Shown piece by piece: positions 579 through 18,730 of a stretch of DNA of 64,000 nt. The position numbers and the translations under genes are program-made. How positions within the stretch are numbered: the stretch's first letter is position 1; each line of letters begins with the position of its first letter. The notes below the pieces were generated by a model. The model was not told the origin of the DNA, made no database searches, and saw nothing but the letters and a program-made list of their open reading frames with translations. Source of the stretch: Holosporales bacterium. Its GTDB lineage: Bacteria; Pseudomonadota; Alphaproteobacteria; JAJTHO01. The stretch spans positions 46,764-110,763 of the forward strand of contig JBKDWF010000040.1 of NCBI GenBank assembly GCA_046338525.1, in the 5' to 3' direction.

Positions 579-761
579 ATGCGGTTTGGATTACTGGTGT
601 TGACACTCTTCCTCTTGGGGGGGTGCAGTTTTATCTTTGGCAGCAAGGAAGTGCCTGATCCCGTCGGTATTGGCCGTGCCCCAGATGCTTTAAAACAAAG
701 TCCTTGTGCGTGCCTTGAAGTTCCTCAGCAATGGGGGCCGCTAATTGTTGGCAGCAGCTAA
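579..761 (+). CDS. Small lipoprotein (60 aa), candidate VirB7-like T4SS lipoprotein
   Basis: An AGGGAG RBS precedes the ATG. The protein has a signal peptide with lipobox LLGG|C. Its size and its position immediately upstream of virB8 fit VirB7-like lipoproteins. No sequence-level homology can be asserted. Confidence 0.45.
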   Translation: MRFGLLVLTLFLLGGCSFIFGSKEVPDPVGIGRAPDALKQSPCACLEVPQQWGPLIVGSS

Positions 762-776
762 GAATAGGAAATATTA

Positions 777-1511
777 ATGGGATTCGGCGACAAACTCAAG
801 GCGACTTTTGGCACCGTCAATAGCGGTGACTCACTGCGTCCTGCTCCCTACGCCGGAGAAGACAAGATGGGAGCGTACCCCGCCGATGTTAGCGTTCCCG
901 CATTAGAAGGCAAACGCCAACTGTTCACCACCCGCGTTTTCGCGTTGGCGTTTACCGTGAGCATGCTGCTCAACGTCGTGCTGGCCTTTAGCCTAAGCGT
1001 CCTCATGCCGCTCAAACGGGTTGAACCATTTTTGCTTACCTTCAGCGATAAGAGCCAGCAAATCGTCCGTGTTGAGCCTATCAGCAAGGACGCCAGCGGC
1101 TTTCAGCTTCTCATCGAGAGCATGGCGAATGAATTTGTCAAAATCCGCGAGGAATTTATTTTTGACGAACAGGAACAGCAACGGCGCTGGACACAATACA
1201 TAAGACCTCGCGTACCGCAGCGTGAGTTTGAGTCTTTTCTTAAGGAAAGGGCTGAAGTAATTCCCAAAATTCGCGATGCCGGCCTTGGACTAAATGTTGA
1301 AATCGTTAGAACACAACGAGTAAGTCCCAATACCATCGAAGTATACTTTGAAACAACAATCGTTGATAAACGCGGCACGGTTAAAGGGCGCAATTCTTAC
1401 ATTGCCCGCATTTCGTTTGGCTTCCGGCAACAGGCCATCTCCCTCAGTGAACAATATCTTAACCCTCTTGGGTTTACAGTGCTTACTTATCAACGGATAG
1501 AAGCACGATGA
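777..1511 (+). CDS. virB8: Type IV secretion system protein VirB8
   Basis: Bitopic architecture: a short N-terminus, one TM (FALAFTVSMLLNVVLAFSLSVLM), then a periplasmic NTF2-like domain ending in the VirB8-typical NPLGF motif. The stop overlaps the virB9 start (ATGA). Confidence 0.8.
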   Translation: MGFGDKLKATFGTVNSGDSLRPAPYAGEDKMGAYPADVSVPALEGKRQLFTTRVFALAFTVSMLLNVVLAFSLSVLMPLKRVEPFLLTFSDKSQQIVRVEPISKDASGFQLLIESMANEFVKIREEFIFDEQEQQRRWTQYIRPRVPQREFESFLKERAEVIPKIRDAGLGLNVEIVRTQRVSPNTIEVYFETTIVDKRGTVKGRNSYIARISFGFRQQAISLSEQYLNPLGFTVLTYQRIEAR

Positions 1512-3148
1512 AGGGGTTGTTACCCTTAATAGTTGGCCTCTTTTTAGCGTCTCATGCACAGGCGCAGATCGGCCTTGCGCCGCCGCTAGGCAACCCCAAC
1601 ACCGTTCAGGGCGGCGGACAGCCTGATTTTATTCAGCAAACACAGCAAGACATACAACAGCAATCCCAAGGCAACTACCCCGACATGGTGCGGGACTTAA
1701 CCCCCTTGGGGGCTATCCAGCAAAGCTGGAACAACCCCGTCCCCAGCAGTGGCCAGATTTCCCCCGGTATTGTCCGCTACGTCTGGCGACCCGACTACGT
1801 CATGGCTATCCGGACGCGGGAATTCATGCAAACCACTATTGAACTGCCGCAATGGGAGAGTATTTCAGAAATTATTTTAGGGGACAGAACCGTTTTTGAA
1901 GCTCAAAAACTAGGTAAAGACTATATGCTTGCCATCCGCCCCACGCATCCAGGGGCTGATACCAACATGACGGTCATTGGTTCATCGGGAAATATCTACA
2001 ATTTTTATCTACGTTCGGAAGGCTGGAATTCCAAAAACATCACGGACTTCACCGTATTTGTCTTAGCTAACCCAGCCAATGCAGGTGCTTCTAACAGCAT
2101 CGGGGCAGTTCCTCATGCCCCCGGCGCTGGAACACCTATAAACGCCCTTACCGGACAACCCTTTGTGAACCAGCCCATGAGCGGGCTTACTGGCACACCC
2201 AGCGGCACCGCTTTTACCGGCAACACCGCACCCACCACCCCAGAATTTGTGCGTTCCATTGCCTTTGATCCCACCAACCTGCGCTTTGATCTAAAGATTT
2301 ACGCCCCCACCCCTGCCGACGTTGAGATTGCCCCCCTGCGGGCATTTACCGATGGCCTGTGGACGTATTTTGACTACGGAGAGAAAGCCGACACGGTGCG
2401 CCGCCCCGTTGTCTTTCGTGTTGTGGATGGCGTGGACAGCATGGTCAACACCCGCACCATGGGGCCAAGAGGCAATATCATTGTTGCCGAAGCCATTGGC
2501 AATTTCACCCTGCGCAATGGTGATCGCGTCGTTTGTGTTTACCAAGCTGGTGCGCCAAGAACTTTTGAAGGCAACCGCAGCATGCCGCCGCCAGTGCCCA
2601 GTAATGATCCTTCCCTTTTCTTTAACAACCGCCTTGATGGCGCTGCCGACAACGGACTTGGCCCCCAGTATAGCGGCTCCCCCATTGGCGGCGTCAACCG
2701 TCAGCCTAATTTTGCCAACGGCAACGGCGGCGCGATTGGGGGAAATTCGGTTCCAGCCGTTGCTGGCCCCATCGCCGCTCAGGGCATTGCCAACTATCAA
2801 AATTCCCCCATTGTGCCGCTTCAGCCCGCGCCGCAACCTGGCAGTTACAGCCAAGCCTACGGCGGTGTAGCCAACAATATCAGCATCGCTGGCCCCGCCA
2901 GCGTCGGCGGCCCACAATTGTACAGCAACCTACCATCACCTACCCAGACACTACCCCCTGGCTATACCCGACCACAAAGCATCTATAATAACAATTCCAT
3001 CACCACAGTACCCGCAACCACCGGCATAGGTTTTGGCCAACGCCCCCCACTTCCATCCATACCCGTACTACCTTCCAGTGGCGCGCGTACCTACGAGCCA
3101 TCACAACCTCCATCCCCCGCTGCGCTGCAGCAAGGATGGATAAAGTAA
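1508..3148 (+). CDS. virB9: Type IV secretion system protein VirB9 (CagX/TrbG family) with long low-complexity linker and C-terminal tail
   Basis: Signal peptide MKGLLPLIVGLFLASHAQA. The N-domain (VRYVWRPDYVMAIRTREFMQTTIELPQWE...YNFYLRSEG) and C-domain (FDLKIYAPTPADVEIAPLRAFTDGLWTYFDYGE...FRVVDGVDSMVNTRT...FTLRNGDRVVCVY) match the VirB9 fold. A roughly 200-aa P/G/N/S/Q-rich tail follows. Confidence 0.8.
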   Translation: MKGLLPLIVGLFLASHAQAQIGLAPPLGNPNTVQGGGQPDFIQQTQQDIQQQSQGNYPDMVRDLTPLGAIQQSWNNPVPSSGQISPGIVRYVWRPDYVMAIRTREFMQTTIELPQWESISEIILGDRTVFEAQKLGKDYMLAIRPTHPGADTNMTVIGSSGNIYNFYLRSEGWNSKNITDFTVFVLANPANAGASNSIGAVPHAPGAGTPINALTGQPFVNQPMSGLTGTPSGTAFTGNTAPTTPEFVRSIAFDPTNLRFDLKIYAPTPADVEIAPLRAFTDGLWTYFDYGEKADTVRRPVVFRVVDGVDSMVNTRTMGPRGNIIVAEAIGNFTLRNGDRVVCVYQAGAPRTFEGNRSMPPPVPSNDPSLFFNNRLDGAADNGLGPQYSGSPIGGVNRQPNFANGNGGAIGGNSVPAVAGPIAAQGIANYQNSPIVPLQPAPQPGSYSQAYGGVANNISIAGPASVGGPQLYSNLPSPTQTLPPGYTRPQSIYNNNSITTVPATTGIGFGQRPPLPSIPVLPSSGARTYEPSQPPSPAALQQGWIK

Positions 3149-3174
3149 TACTACAAAAAATTAAGGAGAGAGCG

Positions 3175-4560
3175 ATGTTACAGAAAATAAAAAGCCACCA
3201 TTTGATCACCGCAGCCTTGTGCCTGTTGTTGATAGGCTGCGCGAGCACGCCATCAGAACAACCAACTGTAAAACCTGTACTACCTATTGCTATAGATAAC
3301 GCAACAAACCGGCCTTTCTTCTGGGCGTACCAAGATCACCTAGGAGACCCTCTACCAAACAGATCCATAAAATCCGTTGTTTTACCCGAAGCCTTGTTAT
3401 CTGATGTATTACTCGGATTAATCGCGGACAGCGATTTACAACTAAATATAGACCCGGAAATTTCTGATCGTGGCCTGCAAAACGTCAACCTATCTGGCAC
3501 CCTTTCCGAAGCGTTAAATACTCTAGCTCAAGATAATGATTTTTTCGTGCTAAGACAGGGGCAGACGCTATACCTGAAACACAGCCTCAGCTACACTGTG
3601 CCCTTGCCTCCATTGGGTTTTTTTAGCGATTATCAAAGAGATAACCCAAAAAGCAACGCGGCATTATATAACGCCTCCCGCAACCCTTACCGCTCTTTTG
3701 TTGAAGCCCTTACCGCCGCCGGAGCTGTCAGTGTCAACGTTGACAGCAAAGAACGTCTGCTTCACTTCACTGCCAGCCGCGCCAGTCTTGCCGCAGTAGA
3801 CGCATTCCTAGAAGAACAGCGCCGCCTACCTACTGTGGCTTTTCGCACCCGAATTATCAGCTACGCCAACACAGCGTCCCCCAACGATCTTATTCCCGGT
3901 GCTAAAGCACAGGGCGATGCTTGGTTAGGAAAATTCAATGCCGATGATATTGTTCGTCACCTTACCGCTCAACGCTTGGGTAATAGCGTTATTGAAAACG
4001 GTCTCATCATTGTTCCCCTTGGCGGTGAAATACACGCCTCCGCCGGGGTTAATTCTGCCACAGAAGGTTGTCCCATGCTGGACAATCCTATAGGAGCATC
4101 ACTGTTGCAAATCGCCACCAGGAATCAAGATGGTGTCTTAGGGGTAAGCCTTACCTTACAAGCTGTTAATCTAGAGCGTCCTAGTGTACCATGCCGCCTG
4201 CCCGATACTTTACCTTTAATTGCCAACACCCAAACCTTTAATATTGAAGGTGGACGTTCCGTGTTCTTGCCCGGTGTCACCATCGGCCAAGACCGCAACC
4301 TAGGTCTGATTCTCGAATCCCCAGCTATTATCGGCCACATTACCGTTAAACCACCCCGCCCATTTCCGTCTAAGCCATTAGTTGTTAACGGTACGGGTAT
4401 TAGCATTTCCCAAGTCACGCCCATCACTCAAGAGCAACCGCCCCTGAAACCTGAGGAGAAACCCGCAAAAGCAGAAAAAAACTCCAAAAACACTAAAGAT
4501 ATAAAATCAAAGAAGAAACACACTAATAAAAAACAAAACACCATCACGTCAGAACAATAA
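3175..4560 (+). CDS. Lipoprotein of unknown function with secretin-N0/STN-like segment, embedded in the T4SS cluster
   Basis: The start was chosen at the ATG at 3175, six nt after an AAGGAGAGAG SD. The ORF track starts it at 3136. Lipobox LLIG|C. The segment NVNLSGTLSEALNTLAQDNDFFVLRQGQTLYLK resembles secretin-N0/STN domains. A beta-rich C-terminal region and a Lys-rich tail follow. It is co-oriented between virB9 and virB10. Confidence 0.6.
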   Translation: MLQKIKSHHLITAALCLLLIGCASTPSEQPTVKPVLPIAIDNATNRPFFWAYQDHLGDPLPNRSIKSVVLPEALLSDVLLGLIADSDLQLNIDPEISDRGLQNVNLSGTLSEALNTLAQDNDFFVLRQGQTLYLKHSLSYTVPLPPLGFFSDYQRDNPKSNAALYNASRNPYRSFVEALTAAGAVSVNVDSKERLLHFTASRASLAAVDAFLEEQRRLPTVAFRTRIISYANTASPNDLIPGAKAQGDAWLGKFNADDIVRHLTAQRLGNSVIENGLIIVPLGGEIHASAGVNSATEGCPMLDNPIGASLLQIATRNQDGVLGVSLTLQAVNLERPSVPCRLPDTLPLIANTQTFNIEGGRSVFLPGVTIGQDRNLGLILESPAIIGHITVKPPRPFPSKPLVVNGTGISISQVTPITQEQPPLKPEEKPAKAEKNSKNTKDIKSKKKHTNKKQNTITSEQ

Positions 4561-4569
4561 AAGTGATTT

Positions 4570-6285
4570 ATGTCACAAATTTTATTGACATATTCTAATT
4601 TTTGGCGATACTGGATACATCGACAAGATCGAGGTAAACAGATCATGGATAAAAGCCCCGGCATTTTCGGGTTTCACAGTTTTTTGCTCATGGCTATTTT
4701 ATGCCTAGCGGTACTAGGCCTATCTGCCTGCGGCAAAGACGAACCGCCCAGCCCACAGCAACAACCGCAACAAGAGCAAAAAGCCGATACCACGCCAGTT
4801 CAGGATCTTCTCAACATTGCCAACCAACAAAAAGAGTCCCCAAAAAAACCAGCCCTCCTAAAAAATCTTACCGGCGACATCAATCTTGGTAGCGGCAATA
4901 CCATTGGCGACGATCAAATTCGTGATATTACTCTTGAAAATGAAGGCGATGAACCACTCACCATCAAAAACATCACCCTCAACCCCCAAAATGTAACGGA
5001 ATTTGTTCTCGGCGGTAATTGCCTAGCCGGAGTTGTGCTTGATCCTTCACGAAAAGCATGCCGCTTAGAAGTTACCTTCAGACCCGTTAACAACCAAGAA
5101 ATTTCCGCCAGCATTGTTATCACCCACACAGGACAAAATGACACTCTCATAATTCAACTTTCCGGTTCCGGTGCAGAAGCCTATATTCCCCCAGAAATTG
5201 CTCAAGAAAAACCCACAGAACCTACCCAACAGCAGATCGAAGCCATGCGTCTGCAGATGGAACGACGCCAGGGACGGCTCTCCAGCACCCCATCGCTCAA
5301 GGGGCAGCTCCGCAATCAATGGATTATGTCCGACGCCGACTACAAAGATATCGGTTACGGTAAAACAACAGCCACCTTTCCCATTGATAGAACGCGGATG
5401 ATTACCAGCGATCGCTATATTCCTGCTGTCTTGGAAAATACCATCAGTTCACAAATTCCCAGAGGCCGGGTTGTTGCCGTTATTGAAAACCACGTTTATT
5501 CTGCCGAAGGTAGAAACATCCTTATCCCAGCAGGTAGCCGCGCTATTGGCGAATACGATGGCTCTAATAAGGCCGGAACGTCACGCCTTACCGTTGTTTG
5601 GAACCGTATCATTCGCCCCGACGGTGTTGGTATAAATGTTCGCTCCCCTTCCGCCGATCCTATGGGGCGTGTTGGTTTAATTGGTGATGTTGACAATCGC
5701 CTTTTCGATAGATTCGGCGTACCTCTACTGATATCCGCCATTGGTGTTGCCGCCAATTACGCCGCCTCACCCTCACAGGTCACTACCACCACGACCACAG
5801 GAGCATTGGGCATTCTTGGAACATCCACTTCAGAAACAACTACTCGGGAAAATCAAGCCGCACGGCAGTTCAGTGCCGATGCAGTACAAAAATCCCAAGA
5901 GTTCATCCAAAACACAATTTCAATTCAACCAATTATTACTGTTCCAGCCGGAACACGCTTCGTTATACTTCCCACACAGGATATCGAATTCAAAAGCCCG
6001 CAGCTCCTCACCGTTGCGGGAGAAGCGGGCAATATTGTCAGCCAAGCGCAGGCTCTTATTCGCGCCCTACAACGCGGAGACATCGCTGGCGGCTCAGAGC
6101 GGCTTATTGAAATTATTGGCCAAGTATCAAAAGCCGGCGCAATGGGGCAGCCAGGATTCGATACGAGCGGCTCTCCTACTGGTGCTTTTGGTGTTGATAA
6201 CAGCGGCACCAATCAAGTAGGAGGTGCCGCAAATAGTTACGGGCCGGGCCGCTCCAATATTAACCCTCCTATAAATAAGCCATAA
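4570..6285 (+). CDS. virB10: Type IV secretion system protein VirB10 (TrbI family)
   Basis: It has a short N-terminus, one hydrophobic segment and a PQ-rich region. The C-terminal VirB10/TrbI domain follows: AVLENTISSQIPRGRVVAVIENHVYSAEGRNILIPAGSRAIGEY...RLTVVWNRIIRPDGVGINV...GDVDNRLFDRFG. The start could instead be the ATG at 4645, which has a GAGG RBS and an LSAC lipobox-like motif. Confidence 0.85.
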   Translation: MSQILLTYSNFWRYWIHRQDRGKQIMDKSPGIFGFHSFLLMAILCLAVLGLSACGKDEPPSPQQQPQQEQKADTTPVQDLLNIANQQKESPKKPALLKNLTGDINLGSGNTIGDDQIRDITLENEGDEPLTIKNITLNPQNVTEFVLGGNCLAGVVLDPSRKACRLEVTFRPVNNQEISASIVITHTGQNDTLIIQLSGSGAEAYIPPEIAQEKPTEPTQQQIEAMRLQMERRQGRLSSTPSLKGQLRNQWIMSDADYKDIGYGKTTATFPIDRTRMITSDRYIPAVLENTISSQIPRGRVVAVIENHVYSAEGRNILIPAGSRAIGEYDGSNKAGTSRLTVVWNRIIRPDGVGINVRSPSADPMGRVGLIGDVDNRLFDRFGVPLLISAIGVAANYAASPSQVTTTTTTGALGILGTSTSETTTRENQAARQFSADAVQKSQEFIQNTISIQPIITVPAGTRFVILPTQDIEFKSPQLLTVAGEAGNIVSQAQALIRALQRGDIAGGSERLIEIIGQVSKAGAMGQPGFDTSGSPTGAFGVDNSGTNQVGGAANSYGPGRSNINPPINKP

Positions 6286-6289
6286 TTTT

Positions 6290-7396
6290 ATGAGCACCCT
6301 CAACAACAGCACCGCCCTTGACAATCCCCTACTCCTAAGGGCTCTGGAACCTATTGAAAATTATTATTCTAGTTCTGCAGTAGAAGAAATCGCCATCAAC
6401 CGCCCTGGCGAAATCATGATCAAAAAACATGGCAAATCTGGATGGGAGACAGTAACAGCAGAAGAGTTAAACCTGCGAAGCCTGCACGCTTTGTGCCGTA
6501 TGCTTGCCAATGTTACCGAACAATCTTTTGATCTCAACGATCTTCCTATTCTTGCAGCGACCTTGCCGCAAGGTCATCGTTTTCAAGCTGTACTTGGCAC
6601 CAACGTACGCTACGAAATGGGGGATACCAATGGCGTGGCAATATGCATAAGACGCTTTGATCTTAATAAAAAATTTAGCCTAGATGATTTTGATTTACGC
6701 CCACAACAAAAAGCTAAAGAAGACCTGGTGCACCGGGGCGTTGAAAAGAAACGTTACAGCGATTTTCCTTACGAAGATTTGGTATCAGCCGTACAACATG
6801 GTGAAGCTGTATTAATATCCGGGGCAACGTCCACAGGAAAAACAACATTTTTAAATGCACTTATTGATTTTATTCCACGCGATCGGCGTATTGTTACCGT
6901 AGAAGATACTCGGGAAGTTGTCGTACCTCACCCTAATCGAGTTCACTTTGTTGTCTCGCGTACCGCTGGAGCCAATAAAATTGGCTATACTCATATTCTC
7001 GACACCGTTGTTCGCATGACTCCTGATGTTATTGTTTGCGGAGAGGTTTCCGTCACAAATGCCAAGAGCATTTACCGTCTGATGACAACGGGGCATTCAA
7101 ACTTTATGGCAACTATTCACGCCGATTCACCGGAAATGGCACTACGCGCGTTTTGGCAAAACCTTACTCAGACCGATCCAGAACTTGATGCCGAAGCCGC
7201 CGTCGAAATTCTCGCCCGCAGCTTTGGCCGGATTGTACAAATTGACCGCTCCTCCGGTAAGCGCATTATAACCGCTGTGGATGCGCCAAATCTGGTTAAA
7301 AAAGTCGCTCATGAAGCATCGGGCATGACAATGGTACAAAAACCTGCTAATACACCAAAAACAAGAGGAAAAAAAGATGGTTCTAAGCCCTTTTAA
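6290..7396 (+). CDS. virB11: Type IV secretion system ATPase VirB11
   Basis: Walker A GATSTGKTT, followed by VTVEDTREV, a Walker B region and a His-box. The N-terminal domain matches VirB11/TrbB traffic ATPases. Confidence 0.9.
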   Translation: MSTLNNSTALDNPLLLRALEPIENYYSSSAVEEIAINRPGEIMIKKHGKSGWETVTAEELNLRSLHALCRMLANVTEQSFDLNDLPILAATLPQGHRFQAVLGTNVRYEMGDTNGVAICIRRFDLNKKFSLDDFDLRPQQKAKEDLVHRGVEKKRYSDFPYEDLVSAVQHGEAVLISGATSTGKTTFLNALIDFIPRDRRIVTVEDTREVVVPHPNRVHFVVSRTAGANKIGYTHILDTVVRMTPDVIVCGEVSVTNAKSIYRLMTTGHSNFMATIHADSPEMALRAFWQNLTQTDPELDAEAAVEILARSFGRIVQIDRSSGKRIITAVDAPNLVKKVAHEASGMTMVQKPANTPKTRGKKDGSKPF

Positions 7397-9461
7397 CCGC
7401 CAAGATTACGCCGAACAGAAACAGGCAACACTATACCTTTTTCAAGTACTTATCGGCTCTATTATTGCCTTCTTTTTCTTTGTTCCCTTGGTCACAGCAA
7501 CGTACACATTTATTAAATTTGGTGTCTCCCAGAAAGTCGTTTTAGCGGTAGAACAATACTTTAGCATGGCCAAAAACCCCATTTCTTGGTGGCAATGGCA
7601 CCTAAACTGGATTACCACTATTCGCCATGGAAATCCTTATGATTGGAGATTTATTTTTTTACCCGTTGAGATTGTTACATCATTAGGCGGCACCTTGGTC
7701 GTTTTTGTCGGCTTTATGTTAAGCAATCCTTACACTTTTCTCGTCACGACTTTTGGAAACGCGCGCATGGCAACCAGCCGCGACATCGACAAGATGCAGC
7801 TCCTTAAAGGTTGGATCGTCGTTCTAGGCGAGTGTCAACGTAAATTTCTTAAGCTTCCTGAAACCTTATCCGTGTTGTGCGTCGCCCCCCCTGGAACAGG
7901 AAAGACAGTCGCTATTGTCGTACCTACTATCCTTACCTGCAATAATGTATCTATGATTATCAATGATGTTAAACCAGAACTGTTTGATATTACAAGCGGA
8001 TATCGCAGTCAACACAGTTTTTGCCTCAAACTAGAATGGGCTGCAACCGACAATCCGGAACGAGGCATTTTCTATCCCCGTTGGAACGCTCTCTCTCCTT
8101 CTTCTATGCCGCCCCCCGGCGCACAGCGCGACTTGTATATTGATCGCTTAGTGAATATTCTTATTGAAGAACCAAAAGGAAGTGCCGATCCACACTGGAC
8201 AAAACGTGGTCGAGCCGTACTGGCCGGATTTATCCACTATCTTTGTTCCAAAATAGAAGCGGGAAACTGGAATAATATCCCCCTGAACTGGCAAGGGAAA
8301 GAGCCAAGTATTCCCATGCTACTCGACTGGATGACCGAAGCCCAAATTTCTGCCCAAGAAAAAGTCGAGCAACTGCGTAAAACCAACCCAATGGCCGCCA
8401 TGAGCGCGGATCCCATGCGTGATCTGCTGACCGATGCCGTGAAAGAATGCCGTGCCGGTAATTACAGCAACCGCGCCATTTTAGAACTTACCGCGTTGGC
8501 TAATACACCTGATAAGGAACGTGGTTCTATCATGTCTACTATGGATGGGGGACTTGTCGTATTTAAAAACAAAGCTGTACGCGATCGTACCAGCCAAAGC
8601 GATTTTTCCTTCATGGACGTGCGCGGGATGCGCGATCCAGTCACGGGAGAATATAAACCAATGAGCATTTATGTCTGCGTGACTCAGCAAGACGCCAAAG
8701 CCTTGGGTGTTATCACCGGTCTTTTAGTCGAAGCTTTATCCGCTTGGCTTGTCGCCTATCCGCCAAAATCCACCACACCCGATGGTCAAAAAGTCGGACC
8801 CTTTCCGGCTTTGTTTGTCCTTGATGAGTTTCCGCAAATGCCTAAGCTAAGGGCTTTAATTGATGGTCCGGCTGTTGGTCGTGGGCAAAAAGTAAGTTTT
8901 TTAATGATTGGCCAAGACTTAGGACAAATCACAGCTGTATACGGAAAAGACGAAGTAGAAACTGTTATCTCAACCACCGCCGCCAAGGTTGTTCTTGCAC
9001 AAAACAACGAGACTACCGCAAAACGCTTTTCAGAAATGGTGGGTCAACGAACAGTAGAAACAGCATCGCGTTCTCGTACTATGGGGGTAAGCCGGGAAAC
9101 AAATCCATTTGCTGCCAACGTTCAACGCAGCTTACAAGGACAGCCGCTCCTCCGCCCCGAAGATTTTATGACCATCCCCAAAGGAAAGCACTACGTTCTT
9201 TACCAAGGATATCTGTCTAGGCCTATTTTATGCGATACACCAGCATATTATAAACACCCATTACTTAGAACCCTTGTGGACCCGAGCAAGGGTGGGAAAT
9301 ACAAAGCTGCTTCCCCTATGCCCGCTTTCATGACCGAACGCCGCAAAGCGGAATACTTAGCCGAACAAGAGCAAGAACATCTTAAAAAAGCCATGCAAGC
9401 CAGCCTAGAGATAGAAGAAACCCAAAAATCAAAACGCTTACCCATAAATTCCGGGGGCTAA
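7377..9461 (+). CDS. virD4: Type IV coupling protein VirD4/TraG family
   Basis: N-terminal TM helices, Walker A VAPPGTGKTV, a Walker B-like LFVLDEFPQM and the length (694 aa) fit T4CP. It overlaps the virB11 3' end by 20 nt. Confidence 0.9.
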   Translation: MVLSPFNRQDYAEQKQATLYLFQVLIGSIIAFFFFVPLVTATYTFIKFGVSQKVVLAVEQYFSMAKNPISWWQWHLNWITTIRHGNPYDWRFIFLPVEIVTSLGGTLVVFVGFMLSNPYTFLVTTFGNARMATSRDIDKMQLLKGWIVVLGECQRKFLKLPETLSVLCVAPPGTGKTVAIVVPTILTCNNVSMIINDVKPELFDITSGYRSQHSFCLKLEWAATDNPERGIFYPRWNALSPSSMPPPGAQRDLYIDRLVNILIEEPKGSADPHWTKRGRAVLAGFIHYLCSKIEAGNWNNIPLNWQGKEPSIPMLLDWMTEAQISAQEKVEQLRKTNPMAAMSADPMRDLLTDAVKECRAGNYSNRAILELTALANTPDKERGSIMSTMDGGLVVFKNKAVRDRTSQSDFSFMDVRGMRDPVTGEYKPMSIYVCVTQQDAKALGVITGLLVEALSAWLVAYPPKSTTPDGQKVGPFPALFVLDEFPQMPKLRALIDGPAVGRGQKVSFLMIGQDLGQITAVYGKDEVETVISTTAAKVVLAQNNETTAKRFSEMVGQRTVETASRSRTMGVSRETNPFAANVQRSLQGQPLLRPEDFMTIPKGKHYVLYQGYLSRPILCDTPAYYKHPLLRTLVDPSKGGKYKAASPMPAFMTERRKAEYLAEQEQEHLKKAMQASLEIEETQKSKRLPINSGG

Positions 9462-9555
9462 TCCATTAAAATGAAAACACATAATTTGTTCATTCCTCTT
9501 GACATAAACCACCATCTTTCCAACAAAAGAAAAACTTGTTTTTAGGATTTTTACC

Positions 9556-9939: not shown

Positions 9940-10506
9940 TTGGAGGCTACTTTGCCCACTTTAACTTTGGCTGATTATTTTACCCTAACCAGACTTGTTG
10001 CGGTTGTACCGTTACTTTTATTCTGGTGGCTTCCAGGGGGTGCATGGTTAGCCTTTGCTGTGTTAGCTGTTGCCTGTCTTACAGATTTTGCCGACGGAAT
10101 TATTGCTCGTCATCGCAAGGAGATTTCCCCATTTGGAACCATGATCGACCCTATTGCGGATAAAGTCTTGGTTATCTCTGCTTTATTAATGCTCGCCTTA
10201 AGTGGGATTCTGACCCTAATAGGGTTGGTGGCGTTTTGGATTATCTTATGGCGGGAAATTATCGTTTCTGGCCTACGAGAATACTTGGCTCAGCGCGGCT
10301 TATCTATGCCAGTAACCCCCATGGCGAAATACAAAACTGCTGCGCAGATGCTTGCCCTGTCCGGGTTATTTTTTGAACACGCTTGGCGCGGCGGTAACGC
10401 TGGCGCGTGGCTGTGGAGCGAAGGCGGCTTACTGCTGGCCACCGTCCTGACAGTATGGACGGGCATTGCTTATGGTAAGGCGACGATTGAGGCGTTGAAA
10501 GGGTAG
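9940..10506 (+). CDS. pgsA: CDP-diacylglycerol--glycerol-3-phosphate 3-phosphatidyltransferase (CDP-alcohol phosphatidyltransferase family), TTG start
   Basis: CDP-OH_P_transferase motif DFADGIIARHRKEISPFGTMIDPIADKVLV in a multi-TM protein. The start is an in-frame TTG, GGAGG-preceded. Confidence 0.7.
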   Translation: MEATLPTLTLADYFTLTRLVAVVPLLLFWWLPGGAWLAFAVLAVACLTDFADGIIARHRKEISPFGTMIDPIADKVLVISALLMLALSGILTLIGLVAFWIILWREIIVSGLREYLAQRGLSMPVTPMAKYKTAAQMLALSGLFFEHAWRGGNAGAWLWSEGGLLLATVLTVWTGIAYGKATIEALKG

Positions 10507-10518
10507 GCCACCTCTATT

Positions 10519-10556
10519 AATACCATTTTGCAATCAATTGATTGTAAAATGGTATT
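10519..10556. terminator. Bidirectional hairpin between convergent pgsA and rsmB
   Basis: A 17-bp inverted repeat, aataccattttgcaatc / gattgtaaaatggtatt, with loop aatt and one mismatch. It overlaps the rsmB stop codon. Confidence 0.45.
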
Positions 10557-11847
10557 AGTTACGCTTCCACGCTGCCACAAAAAAACCATCTGTTCCATGT
10601 TGATGGGGCGTAAGCTGAAGACTATTTTCTTTAATCCCAACCAACTCACCCAACCCTGCCCTGCTGAATGCTTCTTTCATCACCAGCGGTGAAAATCCTA
10701 CTTCTACCTCATTAAACCAAGCAACTTGGGCATCATTTTCCTCACCAAGGAGTGAGCACGTCGCGTACCACAATTCTCCGCCCGGTTTTACTAATCGACC
10801 CGCCTGACTAAGAATAGCACGTTGCTTTGCTACTAATTCTTGAACATCTGCCGCCGTATAACGAAAACGGGCATCCGGGTTGCGTCGCCAAGTGCCAGTA
10901 CCTGTACACGGTGCATCAACTAAAACGCGATCGAATTTTCCGGCATTGCTAACGCACCAGCGATCTTCCATCAATCGCACCGTAGCGTTATGCACCCCCG
11001 CCTTGCGAATGCGGCGTTTGGCTTCCTCTAACCTCTTTGAAATAATATCAAGGGATACCAGCCTCCCCTTGTTTTCCATACTTGCAGCTAGAGCCAAACT
11101 TTTTCCCCCTGCACCGGCACAAAAATCAAGCACCGCCATTCCCGACTTTACCCCCACCAAGAGGGCAGCAAGCTGAGCCGCCTCATCCTGAATTTCCGCA
11201 TGCCCATTTTTCAAAGCAGGCAGACGATCAAAAGCAAAACGTTGACCTATCCTAATCCCCAACGGCGAGTGCGGCGTGGGCTGAGCGGACAAACCCGATG
11301 CCCTAACCTGCTCCAGCAACGCCATCCTATCAATGTGCAAGGTATTGACCCGCAAATCTACCGGTGCTTGTTTTTGTAGTGCATCAAGCAATATTGGCAG
11401 GCAATCCCCATAGCGCGCTTCCAACGTACTTGCCGCCCAGTCCGGACATTCTCCCTTCACCGCTAGCGGCATACTCACCTCGGCTTCGGTATCCACATGG
11501 AGACGTTCCAACTTTCGCCGCTCTCCGCCCGTTAGAGGTGCTGGAGCATATTGACTACCATTATAAATATTGGCCAGCGCTGCTGGCGTCTGACCCTCTA
11601 CAATAAGATGATACGCAAGAAGCCCCAAACGCGGCGTCCAATCTGCACCAGCCCGCACCAGCCTCCAAGTCAAGCGTACTCGGTACCGAAGAACACCATA
11701 CACTAATGCAGCAAGATGCTGCCTATCTCGGCTTCCTGCAAAACGATGTCTTCTACCCCAATGATGTAGCTCCCGATCCACAGGAACACCACCATGCGCA
11801 GCGGTAAGAATCTCTAAAGCCGCACTGGCCAACGCTGCCGGGGTCAT
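10555..11847 (-). CDS. rsmB: 16S rRNA (cytosine967-C5)-methyltransferase RsmB/Sun
   Basis: NusB-like N-terminus. SAM-binding motif DFCAGAGGKS. Motifs DRVLVDAPCTGTG and a PC/TC catalytic cysteine. Confidence 0.8.
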   Translation of the reverse strand: MTPAALASAALEILTAAHGGVPVDRELHHWGRRHRFAGSRDRQHLAALVYGVLRYRVRLTWRLVRAGADWTPRLGLLAYHLIVEGQTPAALANIYNGSQYAPAPLTGGERRKLERLHVDTEAEVSMPLAVKGECPDWAASTLEARYGDCLPILLDALQKQAPVDLRVNTLHIDRMALLEQVRASGLSAQPTPHSPLGIRIGQRFAFDRLPALKNGHAEIQDEAAQLAALLVGVKSGMAVLDFCAGAGGKSLALAASMENKGRLVSLDIISKRLEEAKRRIRKAGVHNATVRLMEDRWCVSNAGKFDRVLVDAPCTGTGTWRRNPDARFRYTAADVQELVAKQRAILSQAGRLVKPGGELWYATCSLLGEENDAQVAWFNEVEVGFSPLVMKEAFSRAGLGELVGIKENSLQLTPHQHGTDGFFVAAWKRN

Positions 11848-12938
11848 GATAGCACCGCCAGCACATCGGCATCTTTTACGTCCCGCCGTTCAACGGCGTT
11901 TCCAATAGAATTAAGCAAAATAAATGTTTTTTTACCACCAACGGTTTTTTTATCGCTTTCCATTACTTTTAATAAATCATGGGGTTTTAAAGTAAAGCTA
12001 GGCAATAAGTCTTTTAAAGTACGAGGATACTCAAGACCATCGAGATGATCCTCAATCGCCACTACTTGATGTGCTTCTAACATGTCTAAACGAGCCGACA
12101 ACCTTGCCGCAAGCCGAATTCCATACGCTACTGCTTCGCCATGAAGAAGAACACTGTTGTTATAACCAACAGCAGCTTCTAATGCATGACCAAACGTATG
12201 ACCAAAATTAAGCAATGCCCGAACTCCAGCTTCACGCTCATCTTTGCTAACGATTAAAGCTTTAGTACGACAGCTATGGGAAATAGCTATTTTTAAAGCT
12301 TCATCATCTCCGTCCAGTATTGCTTGGGCATGACTTTGGCACCATGCAAAAAAACTTGCATCATCAATAAGACCGTATTTTAAAATTTCCGCGTAACCAG
12401 CGCGACGTTCCCGCATGGGTAGTGTCTTTAAGCAATCCAGATCAATAATAACCCGCACCGGTTGGTAAAATGTTCCTATTAAATTTTTACCGGCATGAGT
12501 ATTGATGGCTGTTTTTCCGCCAACAGAACTATCCACTTGGGCTAAAAGAGTTGTAGGAATTTGAACAAAAGGAATACCCCGCAGGGCTATACTGGCCACA
12601 AAACCGCCCAAATCACCAACAACCCCTCCACCTAATGCAATGAGAAGCGTCTTACGATCAATAGGCCAACCTAGGATTTTTTCCAAAACTTCTTGTAAAA
12701 CGGTAAAACTTTTTGCTTCTTCTCCCGCAGGGACAATAAGAGGAAGAATAGCCTTGTTACCAAGAATTTTCTCAATAGTTTTTTGGTATAAAGGAGCAAC
12801 ATTTGTATCGCTAAGTAAGATAATTTTTTTGGTTACATCTAACCATGGTGTAAGCTCTTTTTCTAAATGTGCTAAGCTACCGTTAGAAATCGTAATGTCA
12901 TAACGATGATGCTGTGTTTGTACAGAAATAGAAGTCAT
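11844..12938 (-). CDS. aroB: 3-dehydroquinate synthase
   Basis: GGGVVGDLGGF, a KTAINT motif and HGEAV..GIR: NAD- and metal-binding motifs of AroB (364 aa). Confidence 0.9.
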   Translation of the reverse strand: MTSISVQTQHHRYDITISNGSLAHLEKELTPWLDVTKKIILLSDTNVAPLYQKTIEKILGNKAILPLIVPAGEEAKSFTVLQEVLEKILGWPIDRKTLLIALGGGVVGDLGGFVASIALRGIPFVQIPTTLLAQVDSSVGGKTAINTHAGKNLIGTFYQPVRVIIDLDCLKTLPMRERRAGYAEILKYGLIDDASFFAWCQSHAQAILDGDDEALKIAISHSCRTKALIVSKDEREAGVRALLNFGHTFGHALEAAVGYNNSVLLHGEAVAYGIRLAARLSARLDMLEAHQVVAIEDHLDGLEYPRTLKDLLPSFTLKPHDLLKVMESDKKTVGGKKTFILLNSIGNAVERRDVKDADVLAVLS

Positions 12939-13041
12939 CAGTAGAGTATAACCACTTTATTTTTTGAGAAAACTTAATAACACTCTTCTTCCTATAATTT
13001 TTTTTAGAAATGGTTGTAGTAGTAAGTAGTGCCCATAAAAG

Positions 13042-13272
13042 TGGGGATAACTTTTTTATCTTTTTTATACACAAAGTTTTCCACAGTTATTTGTATGAAA
13101 ATACTTTTTAAAATAAGGAATTAAAAATTATCCCCAAGGATTAAAGCACTTTTGTTCACAGTGTTTTTTTTACCAAAAACTCATATAAGAAGAATAGAGG
13201 AGTGCGTATAGTTTTGCTATACTCTTAAAATAGGCCTGTTATCCACAATCTATCCACAAGCCTATGGATAAT
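13042..13272. promoter_or_regulatory. Cluster of six DnaA-box-like 9-mers in AT-rich intergenic DNA (candidate oriC or DnaA-regulated region)
   Basis: One perfect box: TTATCCACA at 13239-13247. Five one-mismatch boxes: tggggataa at 13042-50 (reverse); TTTTCCACA at 13076-84; TTATCCCCA at 13128-36; CTATCCACA at 13250-58; tatggataa at 13263-71 (reverse). Confidence 0.45.
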
Positions 13273-13999
13273 TATAATTTGCTACAAAAACCTTTAGTAG
13301 CGACAACACCACAATCGCTAAAATTGCTATTCCCACAAGGATTTGCGCTGGAACAATAATAAAAAATATTTGTACCTGTGGCATGAGGCGTGACAACATT
13401 CCAACAGCTATATTGAAAATAATTCCTAAAATAAGCAGTGGTGCAGCTAATTGAACACCGATATGAAAAGCATCAGCGAAGATGCGGCTTAGATGATTGC
13501 TTGCATCAATAATATTGAATGTTGTACCAATAGGGAAAGAAATATAGCTTTGCGCCAAAGCCTTAAAGGTGTTGTGGTGAAGTTCAGCGGTAAAAATAGC
13601 AGTCACCCCAGCCATCGTTAAAAACACGGAAAATAAGTTGCCCTGTTGCCCAAGGCTTGGGTTTAACAGTGAGGCATTTGACATCCCTGTTTGTAAACCA
13701 ATAATAGAACCGGCAACATCCAAGGCACTGAGCAGAAATTTTGCCATTAATCCAAAAAAAACGCCAATGGCAATTTCTTGAATTATATAAACAAATGTTT
13801 GTAGACCACTTTCTGGAACAGAAGGAAGTGGGGTAAGAGGCCAAAGAACTAAGCTGAAAAGGATAGCAAAGGCTAGGCGCACTTTTGCAGGAACAAATAT
13901 TTGATCCAAGCCAGGCATTAAAGAAATAAGGCTCCCTACCCGACAAAAAGTCATTAAAAAAGCAAATGTTTCCTGCGGAAGAAGATTTAGCAGAGACAT
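13262..13999 (-). CDS. fliR: Flagellar biosynthetic protein FliR
   Basis: 245-aa polytopic membrane protein. Its N-terminus TFAFLMTFCRVGSLISLMPGLDQIFVPAKVRLAFAIL is typical of FliR. It lies directly downstream of fliQ. Confidence 0.85.
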   Translation of the reverse strand: MSLLNLLPQETFAFLMTFCRVGSLISLMPGLDQIFVPAKVRLAFAILFSLVLWPLTPLPSVPESGLQTFVYIIQEIAIGVFFGLMAKFLLSALDVAGSIIGLQTGMSNASLLNPSLGQQGNLFSVFLTMAGVTAIFTAELHHNTFKALAQSYISFPIGTTFNIIDASNHLSRIFADAFHIGVQLAAPLLILGIIFNIAVGMLSRLMPQVQIFFIIVPAQILVGIAILAIVVLSLLKVFVANYNYP

Positions 14000-14000
14000 C

Positions 14001-14267
14001 CTAACTGCCTTGAATCATGCGTTGGAAAAGTTCCAATGTGAATGATTGTAATGTGTTAAACATAAAAGGAAGAAACAACGCAGTTGCGGCAAAAACAGCA
14101 ATGACTTTTGGTACAAAAGACAAGGTGCTTTCTTGAATTTGGGTAAGAGCCTGAAACAAAGATATCACAAGTCCAACAATAAGAGTGATAATCAGCAGCG
14201 GCGCCCCAACCTTGAGGGTCGTCCAGAGCGCTTGTTGGGTAATCTCTAAAACATCACTGAAATTCAT
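14001..14267 (-). CDS. fliQ: Flagellar biosynthetic protein FliQ
   Basis: 88 aa with two TMs. The FliQ signature is QQALWTTLKVGAPLLIITLIVGLVISLFQALTQIQE. Confidence 0.85.
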   Translation of the reverse strand: MNFSDVLEITQQALWTTLKVGAPLLIITLIVGLVISLFQALTQIQESTLSFVPKVIAVFAATALFLPFMFNTLQSFTLELFQRMIQGS

Positions 14268-14327
14268 GGTTAAAGACTTAAAAGCAAAGAGTTGCCAAAT
14301 AGTAAATAACTGGGGAAATGTAAGATT

Positions 14328-15242
14328 ATGACGGTTCTTCTTTTACAGTGTTTAGTGCCTTTATATATTTATGTTTTATTAGGGTTTTATGCTGGGCGCG
14401 TTTTAAAAATAGACAGACAACAGGTGGCGCGCTTAGTGATTTATCTGATTGCACCGTTGATGTTTTTAGGGTCGGTGAGCATTGCGCCATTGGATATTAG
14501 GTATTTACTGTTACCAGTTGTTACTTTTTTTCTGGCAGTTGTTATGAGTGGATTGATGTTTTTTTTGTCGGGAAAGGTTTGTCCTGATGCTCGCCGTTAT
14601 CTTATCACTTCAGCATCTGGCACTGGAAATACAGGGTATTTTGGTGTCCCAGTATTTTTGAGTTTTGCTCAACCGGAATCATTGGGTGTGTATATGCTGG
14701 CAATGCTGGGGTTCACCTTTTTTGAGGCTAGTATAGGTTATTATCTTATTGCACGGGGCAATTATTCGGTGCGGGATAGTGTACGACGATTGTTCACATT
14801 ACCCACGTTATATGCAGTGGGGCTGGGGCTGTTGGTTAATGCGAGTGGGGCAGGTATTCCTGCTTGGATGTTGACGGGTCTTGAGCAGATACGCGGAGCC
14901 TATGTAGTACTTGGTATGATGTTGGTGGGTGTGGGATTATCTGCCGTTCGGCGACTTCAAGTTGATGTTCCTTTTACCTCAATGTTATTGTTGATGCGAT
15001 TTATTTTTTGGCCGCTGTTGGTAATGGGAGTGTTGGTTTTTGATTCTATATTTTTAGGGTTTTTTGATTCATTGGGGCGTACAGTTTTATGGGTGTTAGC
15101 GATTGTGCCGTTGGCGGCAAATACAGTGGCTTTTGCTAGTGAAATGAACCTGCATCCAGAAAAAACAGCTACGGCGGTAGTGATTAGCACAGTGTTAGCG
15201 GTGCTTACCGTGCCGCTTATTGCACCATTACTTTTCTTTTGA
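14328..15242 (+). CDS. AEC (auxin efflux carrier / malate permease-like) family transporter
   Basis: 304-aa polytopic membrane protein with two repeated five-TM halves typical of the AEC/Mleu family. Confidence 0.7.
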   Translation: MTVLLLQCLVPLYIYVLLGFYAGRVLKIDRQQVARLVIYLIAPLMFLGSVSIAPLDIRYLLLPVVTFFLAVVMSGLMFFLSGKVCPDARRYLITSASGTGNTGYFGVPVFLSFAQPESLGVYMLAMLGFTFFEASIGYYLIARGNYSVRDSVRRLFTLPTLYAVGLGLLVNASGAGIPAWMLTGLEQIRGAYVVLGMMLVGVGLSAVRRLQVDVPFTSMLLLMRFIFWPLLVMGVLVFDSIFLGFFDSLGRTVLWVLAIVPLAANTVAFASEMNLHPEKTATAVVISTVLAVLTVPLIAPLLFF

Positions 15243-15250
15243 TGGGGTCA

Positions 15251-15347
15251 TATACTCCTTGCACATGAAGAATGTGCAAGGGATTCGCTCAAGCGCCGCG
15301 CGGGCTGTACCACTCGCAAGCTTAGATAGGAAGTCTTCATGTGCGAG
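15251..15347. repeat. Structured ~100-bp repeat, copy 1 (second copy at 49651-49757)
   Basis: The 70-nt core tatactccttgcacatgaagaatgtgcaagggNttcgctcaag.gccgcgcgggctgtacc.ctcgcaag is about 95% identical to the second copy. It has an internal hairpin (ttgcacatg/catgtgcaa) and long-range complementarity (gcacatgaag...cttcatgtgc). It lies between convergent genes. Confidence 0.6.
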
Positions 15348-15834
15348 TAGATTCGGAAATTTTTTCCCCCCAAGACGCAACGAGTTTTTTTTGTATATTA
15401 ATATTGTTTTTTATAGCCGTTTCGTGACGCCAAATAAAAATGGCTCGAATAAGTTGTGGTAGAACAATAATTATACCCCATCCAAAGCCAGCAGCACACA
15501 AGATTCCAAGCCATTCACGGGCATCATTGAGAACATCAAACCCTGCCGCTAGGCTCCATCCTAAAGGAAGAACCTTAATGAGGGTTGGAGCAACACCAGC
15601 AGCATTCATAATAAGAACGGATAATGCTATACGTTTATTAGGATGTTTATCCCATGACCAAGCTACTAAACCGGGCAACATACCCAGTGTACAAAGGAGA
15701 ACTCCAGAAAGAGATATTAAAGATATACAGATAACAATAAGTCCGTAAAGAAATGTTATCTTTCCTGTCCACGAATTTTTTTCTGATTGTTTTTTGGCTT
15801 TAAGTGTTTCTTTTGATTTATCTAGGGTTACCAT
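15337..15834 (-). CDS. Small polytopic membrane protein (165 aa), hypothetical; downstream partner of the kinase-fold protein
   Basis: 3-4 predicted TM segments. It is four nt downstream of the 681-aa gene on the same strand. It is AT-rich like its partner. Confidence 0.55.
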   Translation of the reverse strand: MVTLDKSKETLKAKKQSEKNSWTGKITFLYGLIVICISLISLSGVLLCTLGMLPGLVAWSWDKHPNKRIALSVLIMNAAGVAPTLIKVLPLGWSLAAGFDVLNDAREWLGILCAAGFGWGIIIVLPQLIRAIFIWRHETAIKNNINIQKKLVASWGEKISESTRT

Positions 15835-15838
15835 GATT

Positions 15839-17884: not shown

Positions 17885-18075
17885 GCTGAAATTAACCTTA
17901 ATTAGAATGAATAAAGATTAGGGTATTATAAAAGTACTAACCTTTGGTAATCGCTCATTGGTGGCTTGAGGTTAATAGAGATACCCTACAATTTACATTA
18001 TGCCCCTTGCTGTTAAGATTTGCCTGGCGTAAGGTGCGCTTCTATTTCAAACAGTAGAACAGCAAAGGGTGTGTC

Positions 18076-18582
18076 ATGGCAGGTTCGGTTAACAAAGTCA
18101 TATTGTTAGGAAATGTTGGAAAAGACCCAGAAATTCGAGCGCTTAGCAATGGGCAAAAGGTATGTAATCTTTCTTTGGCTACCAACGAAACGTGGCGTGA
18201 CAAGGCCACTGGCGAAAAGCGTGACAAAACAGAATGGCATCGTGTAGTTATTTTTAATGATAAAATCGCTGAGATAGCTGAAAAATATGTAAAAAAAGGC
18301 TCAAGAGTTTATATAGAGGGTGAGTTGCAAACCCGCAAGTGGACAGATAATGCCGGAGTTGAGCGGTACTCTACCGAGATTGTGCTGCAACGCTTTCGCG
18401 GTGAATTGACCCTTCTGGATGCGCCGCGAAGTGGCGAAAATACCAGTGAATACTCCGGTAACGGTGGAAATGCCAGCTTCGGTCAGGTACGCGGCGGTAA
18501 TTCTGTTGCAAGCAATAGGGCACCTGCTTTCGGTGCCACAGCAGATGCCCCGGCACTGATGGATGATGAAATTCCTTTTTGA
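18076..18582 (+). CDS. ssb: Single-stranded DNA-binding protein
   Basis: OB-fold N-terminus (NKVILLGNVGKDPEIR...TEWHRVV.F). Gly/Asn-rich linker. Acidic tail DDEIPF. Confidence 0.9.
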   Translation: MAGSVNKVILLGNVGKDPEIRALSNGQKVCNLSLATNETWRDKATGEKRDKTEWHRVVIFNDKIAEIAEKYVKKGSRVYIEGELQTRKWTDNAGVERYSTEIVLQRFRGELTLLDAPRSGENTSEYSGNGGNASFGQVRGGNSVASNRAPAFGATADAPALMDDEIPF

Positions 18583-18730
18583 TCTTAATGCTTATCTTGG
18601 GTAGAAGTGCGTTGATATCTTTGCTGCTTGAGCAAAGTTGAGATATCAAAACAAAGGCAAAAAATCATAAAACTTCTTGCACGATAGAGTGCTACAAGCT
18701 AGCACAAACATAGATTGTAGAGGTGAAGTT

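Follow-up and report, generated by a model that had tools for sequence, protein, structure and literature searches.

Outer-membrane complexes of T4SSs recruit lineage-specific extra components, among them DotC, DotD and DotH, Cag3, CagT and CagM, and the N0 domain of Xanthomonas VirB7. N0 domains, whether carried by secretins, by DotD or by Xanthomonas VirB7, serve as docking and ring modules. The N0 lipoproteins DotD of Legionella and VirB7 of Xanthomonas are small (about 140-160 aa) and consist of N0 only. Type IVb pilus secretins such as BfpB (EPEC, PDB 9u5s) and PilN (R64, TIGR02520) are lipoprotein-anchored, lack a pilotin-type S-domain and are built of N0, N3 and secretin core, in this order. 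A precedent for joint work of a VirB9 fold and a secretin is RcpA, the Tad secretin, whose N-domain is VirB9-like (PMC10499894). In a full-text literature search, no virB operon was described as containing a gene of secretin origin, virB9-secretin loci were not reported, and no T4SS outer-membrane extra was described as stemming from a full secretin.

The gene analysed here, hereafter gene X, was found between virB9 and virB10 in the window, i.e. the whole 64-kb stretch of DNA that was analysed. The operon had the co-oriented order virB7-virB8-virB9-X-virB10-virB11-virD4 and comprised the following features:

579..761, + strand: VirB7-like lipoprotein of 60 aa (lipobox LLGGC), kept upstream of virB8 in related loci
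777..1511, + strand: VirB8 (PF04335, E 1e-22)
1508..3148, + strand: VirB9, 546 aa, with a long Pro/Gly/Gln-rich C-terminal tail (PF03524, E 1e-26; TIGR02781)
3163..3168, + strand: Shine-Dalgarno AAGGAG, read from the sequence, 6 nt ahead of the X ATG at 3175
3175..4560, + strand: gene X, 461-aa lipoprotein and trimmed secretin homologue (ORF, Shine-Dalgarno, hhalign, Foldseek, selection)
4570..6285, + strand: VirB10, likely start 4645 (PF03743, E 2e-46; Ig-like matches)
6290..7396, + strand: VirB11 (TIGR02788, E 1e-58)
7377..9461, + strand: VirD4 coupling protein (PF02534, E 6e-59)

The co-oriented, tightly packed 461-aa gene reported between virB9 and virB10 in a preliminary description is thus real, as judged from its ORF, its Shine-Dalgarno sequence and the Pfam/NCBIfam assignments of its neighbours. 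It lies 26 nt from the virB9 stop (3148) and is separated from virB10 by 9 nt (start at 4570) or 84 nt (start at 4645). An alternative in-frame ATG at 3136, overlapping the end of virB9, was the choice of the JGI gene caller and yields 474 aa; the nearest X homologue begins at the equivalent of 3175. Scanning for promoters and terminators around X gave no signal above that of shuffled sequences. The vir cluster is flanked by leuC and gcvH, amid housekeeping genes, and is therefore chromosomal. A 90% identical VirB9 was found in a Holosporales MAG. VirB10 has an Ig-like domain and starts with a signal peptide of lipoprotein type (LGLSAC), whose lipobox was conserved in all VirB10 of the loci assigned below to class A. 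The idea that X stands in for VirB7 was considered and dropped, as the operon already has its own VirB7-like lipoprotein gene (579-761).

X matched no Pfam or NCBIfam model and no PDB sequence, and phmmer and profile searches against PDB sequences returned nothing significant. A word-indexed search, queried once with X and once with the family alignment, yielded the self cluster and one 78% relative among the matches listed. Exhaustive phmmer against 1.84 billion cluster representatives produced 13 matches and a family of about 10 clusters. Nine of these matches (P0002, P0056-P0061, P0063 and P0064; 355-651 aa) were X-family clusters sharing 22-36% identity with X, except P0002 at 78%. The long proteins P0062 and P0066 (2138 and 1626 aa), which matched in 7 and 11 short stretches, were set aside as probably spurious. 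P0065 and P0067 matched residues ~57-230 of X (E 5e-5 and 4e-4) and are genuine lipoprotein secretins, recognized by PF00263 (E 3e-17 and 5e-18) and also by the NCBIfam MshL and PilN models; these intermediate true secretins in turn matched BfpB at E 4e-16 (phmmer). PF00263 matched neither X at E <= 0.1 nor eight of its relatives at E <= 1. With the secretin of locus L043 (see below) as tblastn query, X was matched at E 2e-7, and tblastn of X against plasmids gave a single weak match, a Rhodoferax plasmid secretin.

Profile comparison established the relationship. Hhalign of a 12-member X alignment against the two PF00263-positive lipoprotein secretins gave a probability of 99.3% (E 2e-20) over X residues 47-291, and a near-global alignment of the same type reached the last beta-strand. 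An AlphaFold2 model of the X monomer, based on a 12-row alignment, had a pLDDT of ~90 over residues 45-398, with residues 1-43 and about 399-461 disordered; from the X sequence alone the pLDDT was 33 and the model meaningless. By secondary structure, the former model comprises an N0 fold (68-135), an N3-like alpha/beta domain (137-217) and a beta-rich domain (220-386). In a Foldseek comparison of this model with the PDB, the top 39 matches were all secretins, BfpB leading (E 1e-10), followed by InvG, PilQ, GspD and pIV; the two true secretins were among the rows of the alignment behind this model and may have biased its fold, and the hhalign evidence is independent of predicted structure. X is homologous to secretins over its whole folded length, from the pre-N0 motif through the last strand. 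Its identity and origin as a descendant of a BfpB/PilN-type (type IVb pilus) lipoprotein secretin are well supported. The structural similarity to N0 domains and secretins anticipated by the preliminary description was thereby borne out, as was its suggestion that X is xenologous to the VirB set.

Distribution of the gene was analysed by using VirB9 as an anchor, which led to 32 genomic loci, annotated together with earlier loci by HMMs. Class A, defined by virB10 downstream, consisted of the window, L001-L011, L013, L017-L025, L041, L042 and L047. An X-type gene occupied the virB9-virB10 slot in 21/21 sequence-distinct loci with virB10 downstream of this VirB9 type, in line with the co-conservation expected earlier of a component of this vir cluster. 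L030, a member of the VirB9 clade, has lost both X and virB10 at the locus, and the short contigs bearing the X homologues L012 and L015 show no vir genes.

Class-B loci display virB7-like, virB8 and virB9 genes followed by a full PF00263 secretin and by pilus-type genes. A first group, termed tight, consists of L014, L027-L029, L031 (Dongiaceae), L035, L043 and L046, plus L032, which was placed here by its virB9-secretin junction alone as the contig ends inside the secretin gene. The order behind the secretin in this group is a ~170-aa protein, an MshE/PilB-like ATPase, a GspF/PilC-like platform protein and two membrane proteins; in L043 a genuine virB11 lies behind the pilus cassette, and no virB10 is visible at the locus. 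The spaced group is exemplified by Telmatospirillum siberiense (L044), whose locus starts with VirB2, VirB4, three unassigned ORFs, VirB8 and VirB9 and continues with a TcpQ-domain protein, a PilN-type secretin, PilO, an unassigned 206-aa ORF, the ATPase and the platform protein. This gene set is an R64-like type IVb pilus set. No virB10 was seen at class-B loci, and no T4bP cassette gene (ATPase, platform) was found in the 64-kb window or at any class-A locus. A colinear pilus cassette without virB8 and virB9 is present on the conjugative plasmid of Rhodoferax ferrireducens T118.

In a neighbour-joining VirB9 tree, rooted on one distant canonical virB8-9-10-11-D4 locus (L045), the topology was ((class A, class-B tight), class-B spaced), in which class A and B-spaced each had a bootstrap of 100, B-tight one of 81 and the grouping of A with B-tight one of 91. 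The phylogeny of secretins and X was congruent with that of VirB9, X being nearer in sequence to B-tight secretins than to B-spaced ones. On the simplest reading of these data, which relies on a distance method with a single distant outgroup, virB9 would already have been followed by a pilus secretin in the common ancestor of class A and both B clades, and on the class-A stem the other pilus genes would have been lost or replaced and the secretin trimmed. Considering X as a gene 'inserted' between virB9 and virB10, as initially described, is thus misleading, since the loci and the VirB9 tree place a secretin gene behind virB9 in the ancestor of the three clades.

The domain organization of X is as follows:

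3175..3240, + strand: lipoprotein signal peptide, lipobox LLIG-C22 with Ala at +2 (sequence and conserved Cys column)
3241..3369, + strand: disordered tether (aa 23-44) and pre-N0 motif RPFFW...GDPLPNRSIK (aa 45-65) (pLDDT; shared motif)
3370..3582, + strand: N0 domain, aa 66-136, fold beta-alpha-beta-beta-alpha-beta-beta in the model
3583..3831, + strand: LPPLG strand/linker and N3-like alpha/beta domain, aa 137-219 (beta-alpha-beta-beta-alpha; alignment to true secretins)
3832..4338, + strand: trimmed secretin core, aa 220-388 (segment lengths; gates mapped through BfpB)
4069..4071, + strand: Cys299 (Gate-1 stump), found in every X-family member and in no class-B secretin
4192..4194, + strand: Cys340 (Gate-2 stump), which probably pairs with Cys299 in a disulfide
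4339..4557, + strand: Pro/Lys-rich disordered C-terminal tail, aa 389-461 (pLDDT below 50)

The N-terminus, MLQKIKSHHLITAALCLLLIG-C22-ASTP, carries a classical lipobox with Ala at +2, and the Cys column was kept in all X-family members and in the related true secretins of the alignment. Three further traits given by the preliminary description were recovered together with this lipobox: the N-terminal N0-like region, the beta-rich C-terminal half, which is beta-rich in the model, and the Lys-rich tail, a Lys/Pro segment predicted to be disordered. The peptide NVNLSGTLSEALNTLAQDNDFFVLRQGQTLYLK (residues 103-135), quoted there for its N0 resemblance, lies inside the N0 fold of the model, where it runs from strand 3 through helix 2 to strands 4-5. 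Model confidence climbs from a pLDDT below 50 to ~88 at residue 45, where the pre-N0 motif, also present in class-B secretins, begins. L144, P145, P146 and G148 are invariant in the family. The tail has a mean pairwise identity of 0.04 in the family and is missing from many members. As in secretins, N0 is followed by an N3-type ring-building domain.

Segment lengths were measured between conserved anchors in an alignment of 22 X-family proteins with 16 related true secretins. The figures below compare the X-family median with the median of the nine class-B tight secretins:

N0: 71 aa in X, 71 aa in true secretins
Helix plus two strands: 35 aa in X, 35 aa in true secretins
First strand plus lip: 13 aa in X, 50 aa in true secretins
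Gate 1 loop: 16 aa in X, 34 aa in true secretins
Central hairpin: 24 aa in X, 25 aa in true secretins
Gate 2 loop: 11 aa (range 11-14) in X, 23 aa in true secretins
Next strands: 20 aa in X, 21 aa in true secretins
Pre-last-strand loop (VP..G..PF motif): 5 aa (range 5-7) in X, 33 aa in true secretins
Last strand: 12 aa in X, 12 aa in true secretins

These lengths indicate a core in which the strands have been held and four excursions cut. Inner and outer barrel strands are present at the monomer level (segment lengths, Foldseek), and the trimming of the gate tips, the lip and the VP..G..PF loop was seen in all 22 X-family members. By the same measure, X possesses neither the channel-closing Gate 1 and Gate 2 hairpins nor the membrane-interacting lip and amphipathic helical loop. 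We take the VP..G..PF loop before the last strand to be the amphipathic helical loop of other secretins. The latter is conserved and adjoins the inner leaflet (PMC10499894). Gate positions were mapped via the phmmer alignment of P0065 with BfpB, assuming that PDB chain numbering equals UniProt numbering minus 17, onto the published domain map (gate 1, 406-430; gate 2, 461-479; outer barrel, 307-392 and 495-545; PMC12114550). An assignment of the 33-aa pre-last-strand loop as Gate 2 was rejected, since this mapping places it in an outer-barrel segment and Gate 2 in the preceding loop. Exactly two mature Cys, 29-67 residues apart, occur in 22/22 X-family proteins and none in class-B tight secretins; Cys299 and Cys340 may form a disulfide stapling the two gate stumps. 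X thus belongs to the secretin superfamily by descent and fold, yet is not filed as a functional secretin because it fails the Pfam model and is without gates, lip and loop.

X is co-inherited with virB9 and held under purifying selection. Its dN/dS was 0.10, 0.07 and 0.18 in three species pairs, ratios that are approximate because dS is near saturation. It is the fastest-evolving gene of the operon (dN 0.15 versus 0.03-0.10 for the other six), with a dN 2-3 times that of VirB8, VirB9 and VirB10. The best-conserved parts of the protein are the last strand (0.39 mean identity), N0, the pre-N0 motif and the LPPLG segment. The dN/dS ratios and this conservation pattern therefore point to a maintained gene and not to a decaying remnant.

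X shares with BfpB and PilN the lipoprotein anchor without S-domain and the order N0, N3, secretin core; unlike them, it is devoid of most of Gate 1, Gate 2, lip and pre-last-strand loop, adds the Cys pair, fails PF00263 and neighbours VirB9 and VirB10 instead of pilus ATPase and platform genes. With class-B secretins (L043, L014, L044) it has in common its place directly after virB8-virB9, a 71-aa N0, the LPP(L/V) motif and the strand lengths. The class-B proteins differ in being PF00263-positive, with intact gates and no mature Cys pair, and in having T4bP-like ATPase, platform and PilO-like genes behind them. Within the 64-kb window X has no genetic tie to a T2SS, T3SS, T4P or phage-export ATPase or platform, such a tie being present in class-B loci. 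RcpA likewise brings a VirB9-like fold and a secretin domain into one outer-membrane assembly (PMC10499894); it is one fused, gated secretin, whereas VirB9 and the gate-less X are separate genes. As an N0 lipoprotein encoded inside a T4SS operon, X probably works most like the N0-bearing T4SS accessory lipoproteins, of which DotD and Xanthomonas VirB7 may be regarded as functional analogues, X adding an N3-like domain and a secretin-derived barrel core.

Our favoured explanation, to which we give slightly better than an even chance, is that X forms an outer-membrane-tethered, gate-less, secretin-derived ring docked on the VirB7/9/10 core. X would no longer be a gated pilus pore. It would oligomerize via its retained N0/N3 domains and barrel strands into a lipid-tethered ring, which would dock on VirB9, perhaps also on the lipoprotein VirB10, and enlarge or scaffold the T4SS outer-membrane core complex. 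Against a ring, loss of the lip and of the pre-last-strand loop could abolish assembly or membrane association. Evolution 2-3 times faster than that of the neighbours, the failure of PF00263 to detect the X family and the absence of vir genes around L012 and L015 also count against this explanation. A rather unlikely alternative is that X acts as a transient assembly or pilotin-like factor, or as a periplasmic spacer, positioning VirB9/VirB10 via N0 and its lipid anchor; such a task would suit a lipoprotein that bears an N0 docking domain on a long flexible tether, has lost its membrane-interacting loops and evolves faster than its structural neighbours. If N0 were all that counted, however, it would be hard to see why every strand of the barrel core has retained its length and why conservation peaks in the last strand. 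The bolder possibility that X provides a permanently open ring or sleeve in the VirB/D4 outer-membrane conduit, class-B loci being T4SS/T4bP hybrids in which the secretin replaces VirB10 in its outer-membrane role, is in our opinion distinctly doubtful.

It is improbable that X is still the outer-membrane pore of a T4P or T2SS-like system encoded elsewhere, its vir position being a historical leftover. Its closest full-length relatives do serve T4bP-like cassettes and the part of the genome inspected amounted to 64 kb, but every family member has shortened Gate 1/Gate 2 tips, lip and VP..G..PF loop, cassette genes are absent from the window and from class-A loci, and the operon position of X is stable across lineages sharing just 22-35% identity. 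We likewise see little chance that X is a decaying relic of a lost pilus cassette without a T4SS role, possibly having taken up an unrelated function as an envelope lipoprotein. Such decay would fit the highest dN of the operon, the progressive shortening (355-651 aa) with a variable tail and the loss of X and virB10 in L030; it is opposed by a dN/dS of 0.07-0.18, by ORFs that are intact in all lineages and by the invariance of the lipobox, the LPPLG motif and the Cys pair. Kinship with DotD or with TraK/TraV had been proposed by the preliminary description, with X then regarded as an N0 lipoprotein whose beta-rich C-terminal half would be novel and unrelated. This proposal is largely refuted and very improbable: the C-terminal half aligns strand-for-strand with secretin domains, its best relatives, by structure as well as by sequence, are full secretins instead of DotD or TraK, and hhalign, Foldseek and segment lengths indicate a BfpB/PilN-type secretin homologue throughout. 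No sequence or profile membership in the DotD family or in F-type TraK/TraV was found for X.

Under the favoured reading of a docked, gate-less ring, X is a candidate new T4SS structural subunit in Holosporales-like bacteria, among which are intracellular symbionts of protists. Its family represents a natural 'minimal secretin', which could reveal the parts required for ring assembly. The loci described here would also outline a traceable path, running from a conjugation-associated type IVb pilus cassette located behind virB9 to the later co-option of one of its components. If the open-ring possibility were true, this would be the first T4SS with a secretin architecture. Finally, the largest potential gain lies with the hybrid class-B loci: virB-plus-secretin loci occur in free-living Alphaproteobacteria, including the cultured Telmatospirillum siberiense, which makes the relationship between VirB9 and secretins experimentally testable.

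VirB9 of the window was unusually long, and the neighboring features discussed here included an alternative start for X, the 461-aa lipoprotein gene (3175-4560, +) lying between virB9 and virB10:

1508-3148, VirB9, 546 aa
3136-3174, alternative start of X at an in-frame upstream ATG (3136), with a 13-nt overlap with the virB9 stop
4585-4612, sigma-70-like site (TTGACA, 16 nt, GATACT), 10/12 match
4570-6285, VirB10, likely start at 4645

The CagX domain of this VirB9 contained a Gly/Pro/Thr-rich linker of about 60 aa and was accompanied by a C-terminal tail of about 200 aa, rich in Pro/Gly/Gln/Ser; tail length differed between relatives (404-623 aa). Regarding X, the JGI gene caller chose the ATG at 3136, giving a 474-aa product, but the Shine-Dalgarno site and the closest homologue favour a predicted start at 3175. 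The sigma-70-like site, lying downstream of the X stop and ahead of the probable start of virB10 (4645), was the best match within the first 10 kb of the window, a region in which the total number of such sites was not above that of shuffled sequences; the site may act as an internal promoter or have arisen by chance.

Related loci carrying a full secretin after virB9 (class B) were found in a tight form (L014, L027-L029, L031, L032, L035, L043 and L046) and a spaced form (L033, L034, L037-L039, L044 and L048). Their hosts were free-living or uncultured Alphaproteobacteria (Dongiaceae, Telmatospirillum, Rhodospirillales MAGs), including the cultured T. siberiense 26-4b1. In these loci, virB7-like, virB8 and virB9 genes were followed by the lipoprotein secretin and by type IVb-pilus-like genes encoding a PilO-like protein, an MshE/PilB-like ATPase and a GspF-like platform. 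No virB10 was seen within the visible extent of the class-B loci, and L043 carried a true virB11 downstream of the secretin/pilus cassette. Class-B loci may be hybrids of a T4SS and a T4bP, or they may represent an accessory pilus for conjugation lodged inside a vir operon. A colinear cassette was found on a conjugative plasmid of type MOBH/MPF_T:

10416-18861 of NC_007901.1 (Rhodoferax ferrireducens T118 plasmid, L049), class-B-colinear cassette

It encoded a PulD-like protein, a secretin sharing 33% identity with that of L043, a hypothetical protein, an ATPase, a T2SS-F protein and two further hypotheticals. A PRTRC system adjoined this cassette, and virB8/9 were not adjacent to it.

Two X-family members, of 518 aa (L012, 595-2151) and 355 aa (L015, 1407-2474), were located on short contigs where vir genes were not visible around them, and hisI adjoined one of the two; either these contigs are too short to include the operon, or the X gene is separable from it. 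On a complete 1.87-Mb chromosome (OY970150.1, L030) belonging to the same VirB9 clade as the loci with an X-type gene between virB9 and virB10 (class A), virB7-like, virB8 and virB9 genes were present (7010-9521) and followed by unrelated genes, X and virB10 both being absent downstream of virB9; this locus looks rearranged or degenerating. A short motif near the extreme C-terminus, (G)VIVNP.(D/H)GL or DDGLG, was shared by some X-family proteins (P0056, P0059 and that of L008, 8901-10397) and one class-B secretin (P0065), and was not found in the window X.

Elsewhere in the window, one ORF weakly matched a eukaryote-type protein kinase domain:

15839-17884 (-), 681-aa ORF, PF00069 match

The match had an E value of 4e-7 and fell slightly short of the gathering score. 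This Holosporales genome bears a T4SS, and the ORF is a possible candidate for an effector.

Whereas classical VirB10 proteins have a cytoplasmic tail, a TM helix and a Pro-rich region, the window VirB10 displayed in their place a lipoprotein-type signal peptide (…AVLGLSAC-GKDE) and, behind it, a two-Cys Ig-like domain (HYDIN/VesB-like, choice-of-anchor D). Both lipobox and Ig-like domain were kept in every class-A VirB10. If VirB10 is indeed lipid-anchored, this would alter the coupling of the outer complex to the inner membrane.
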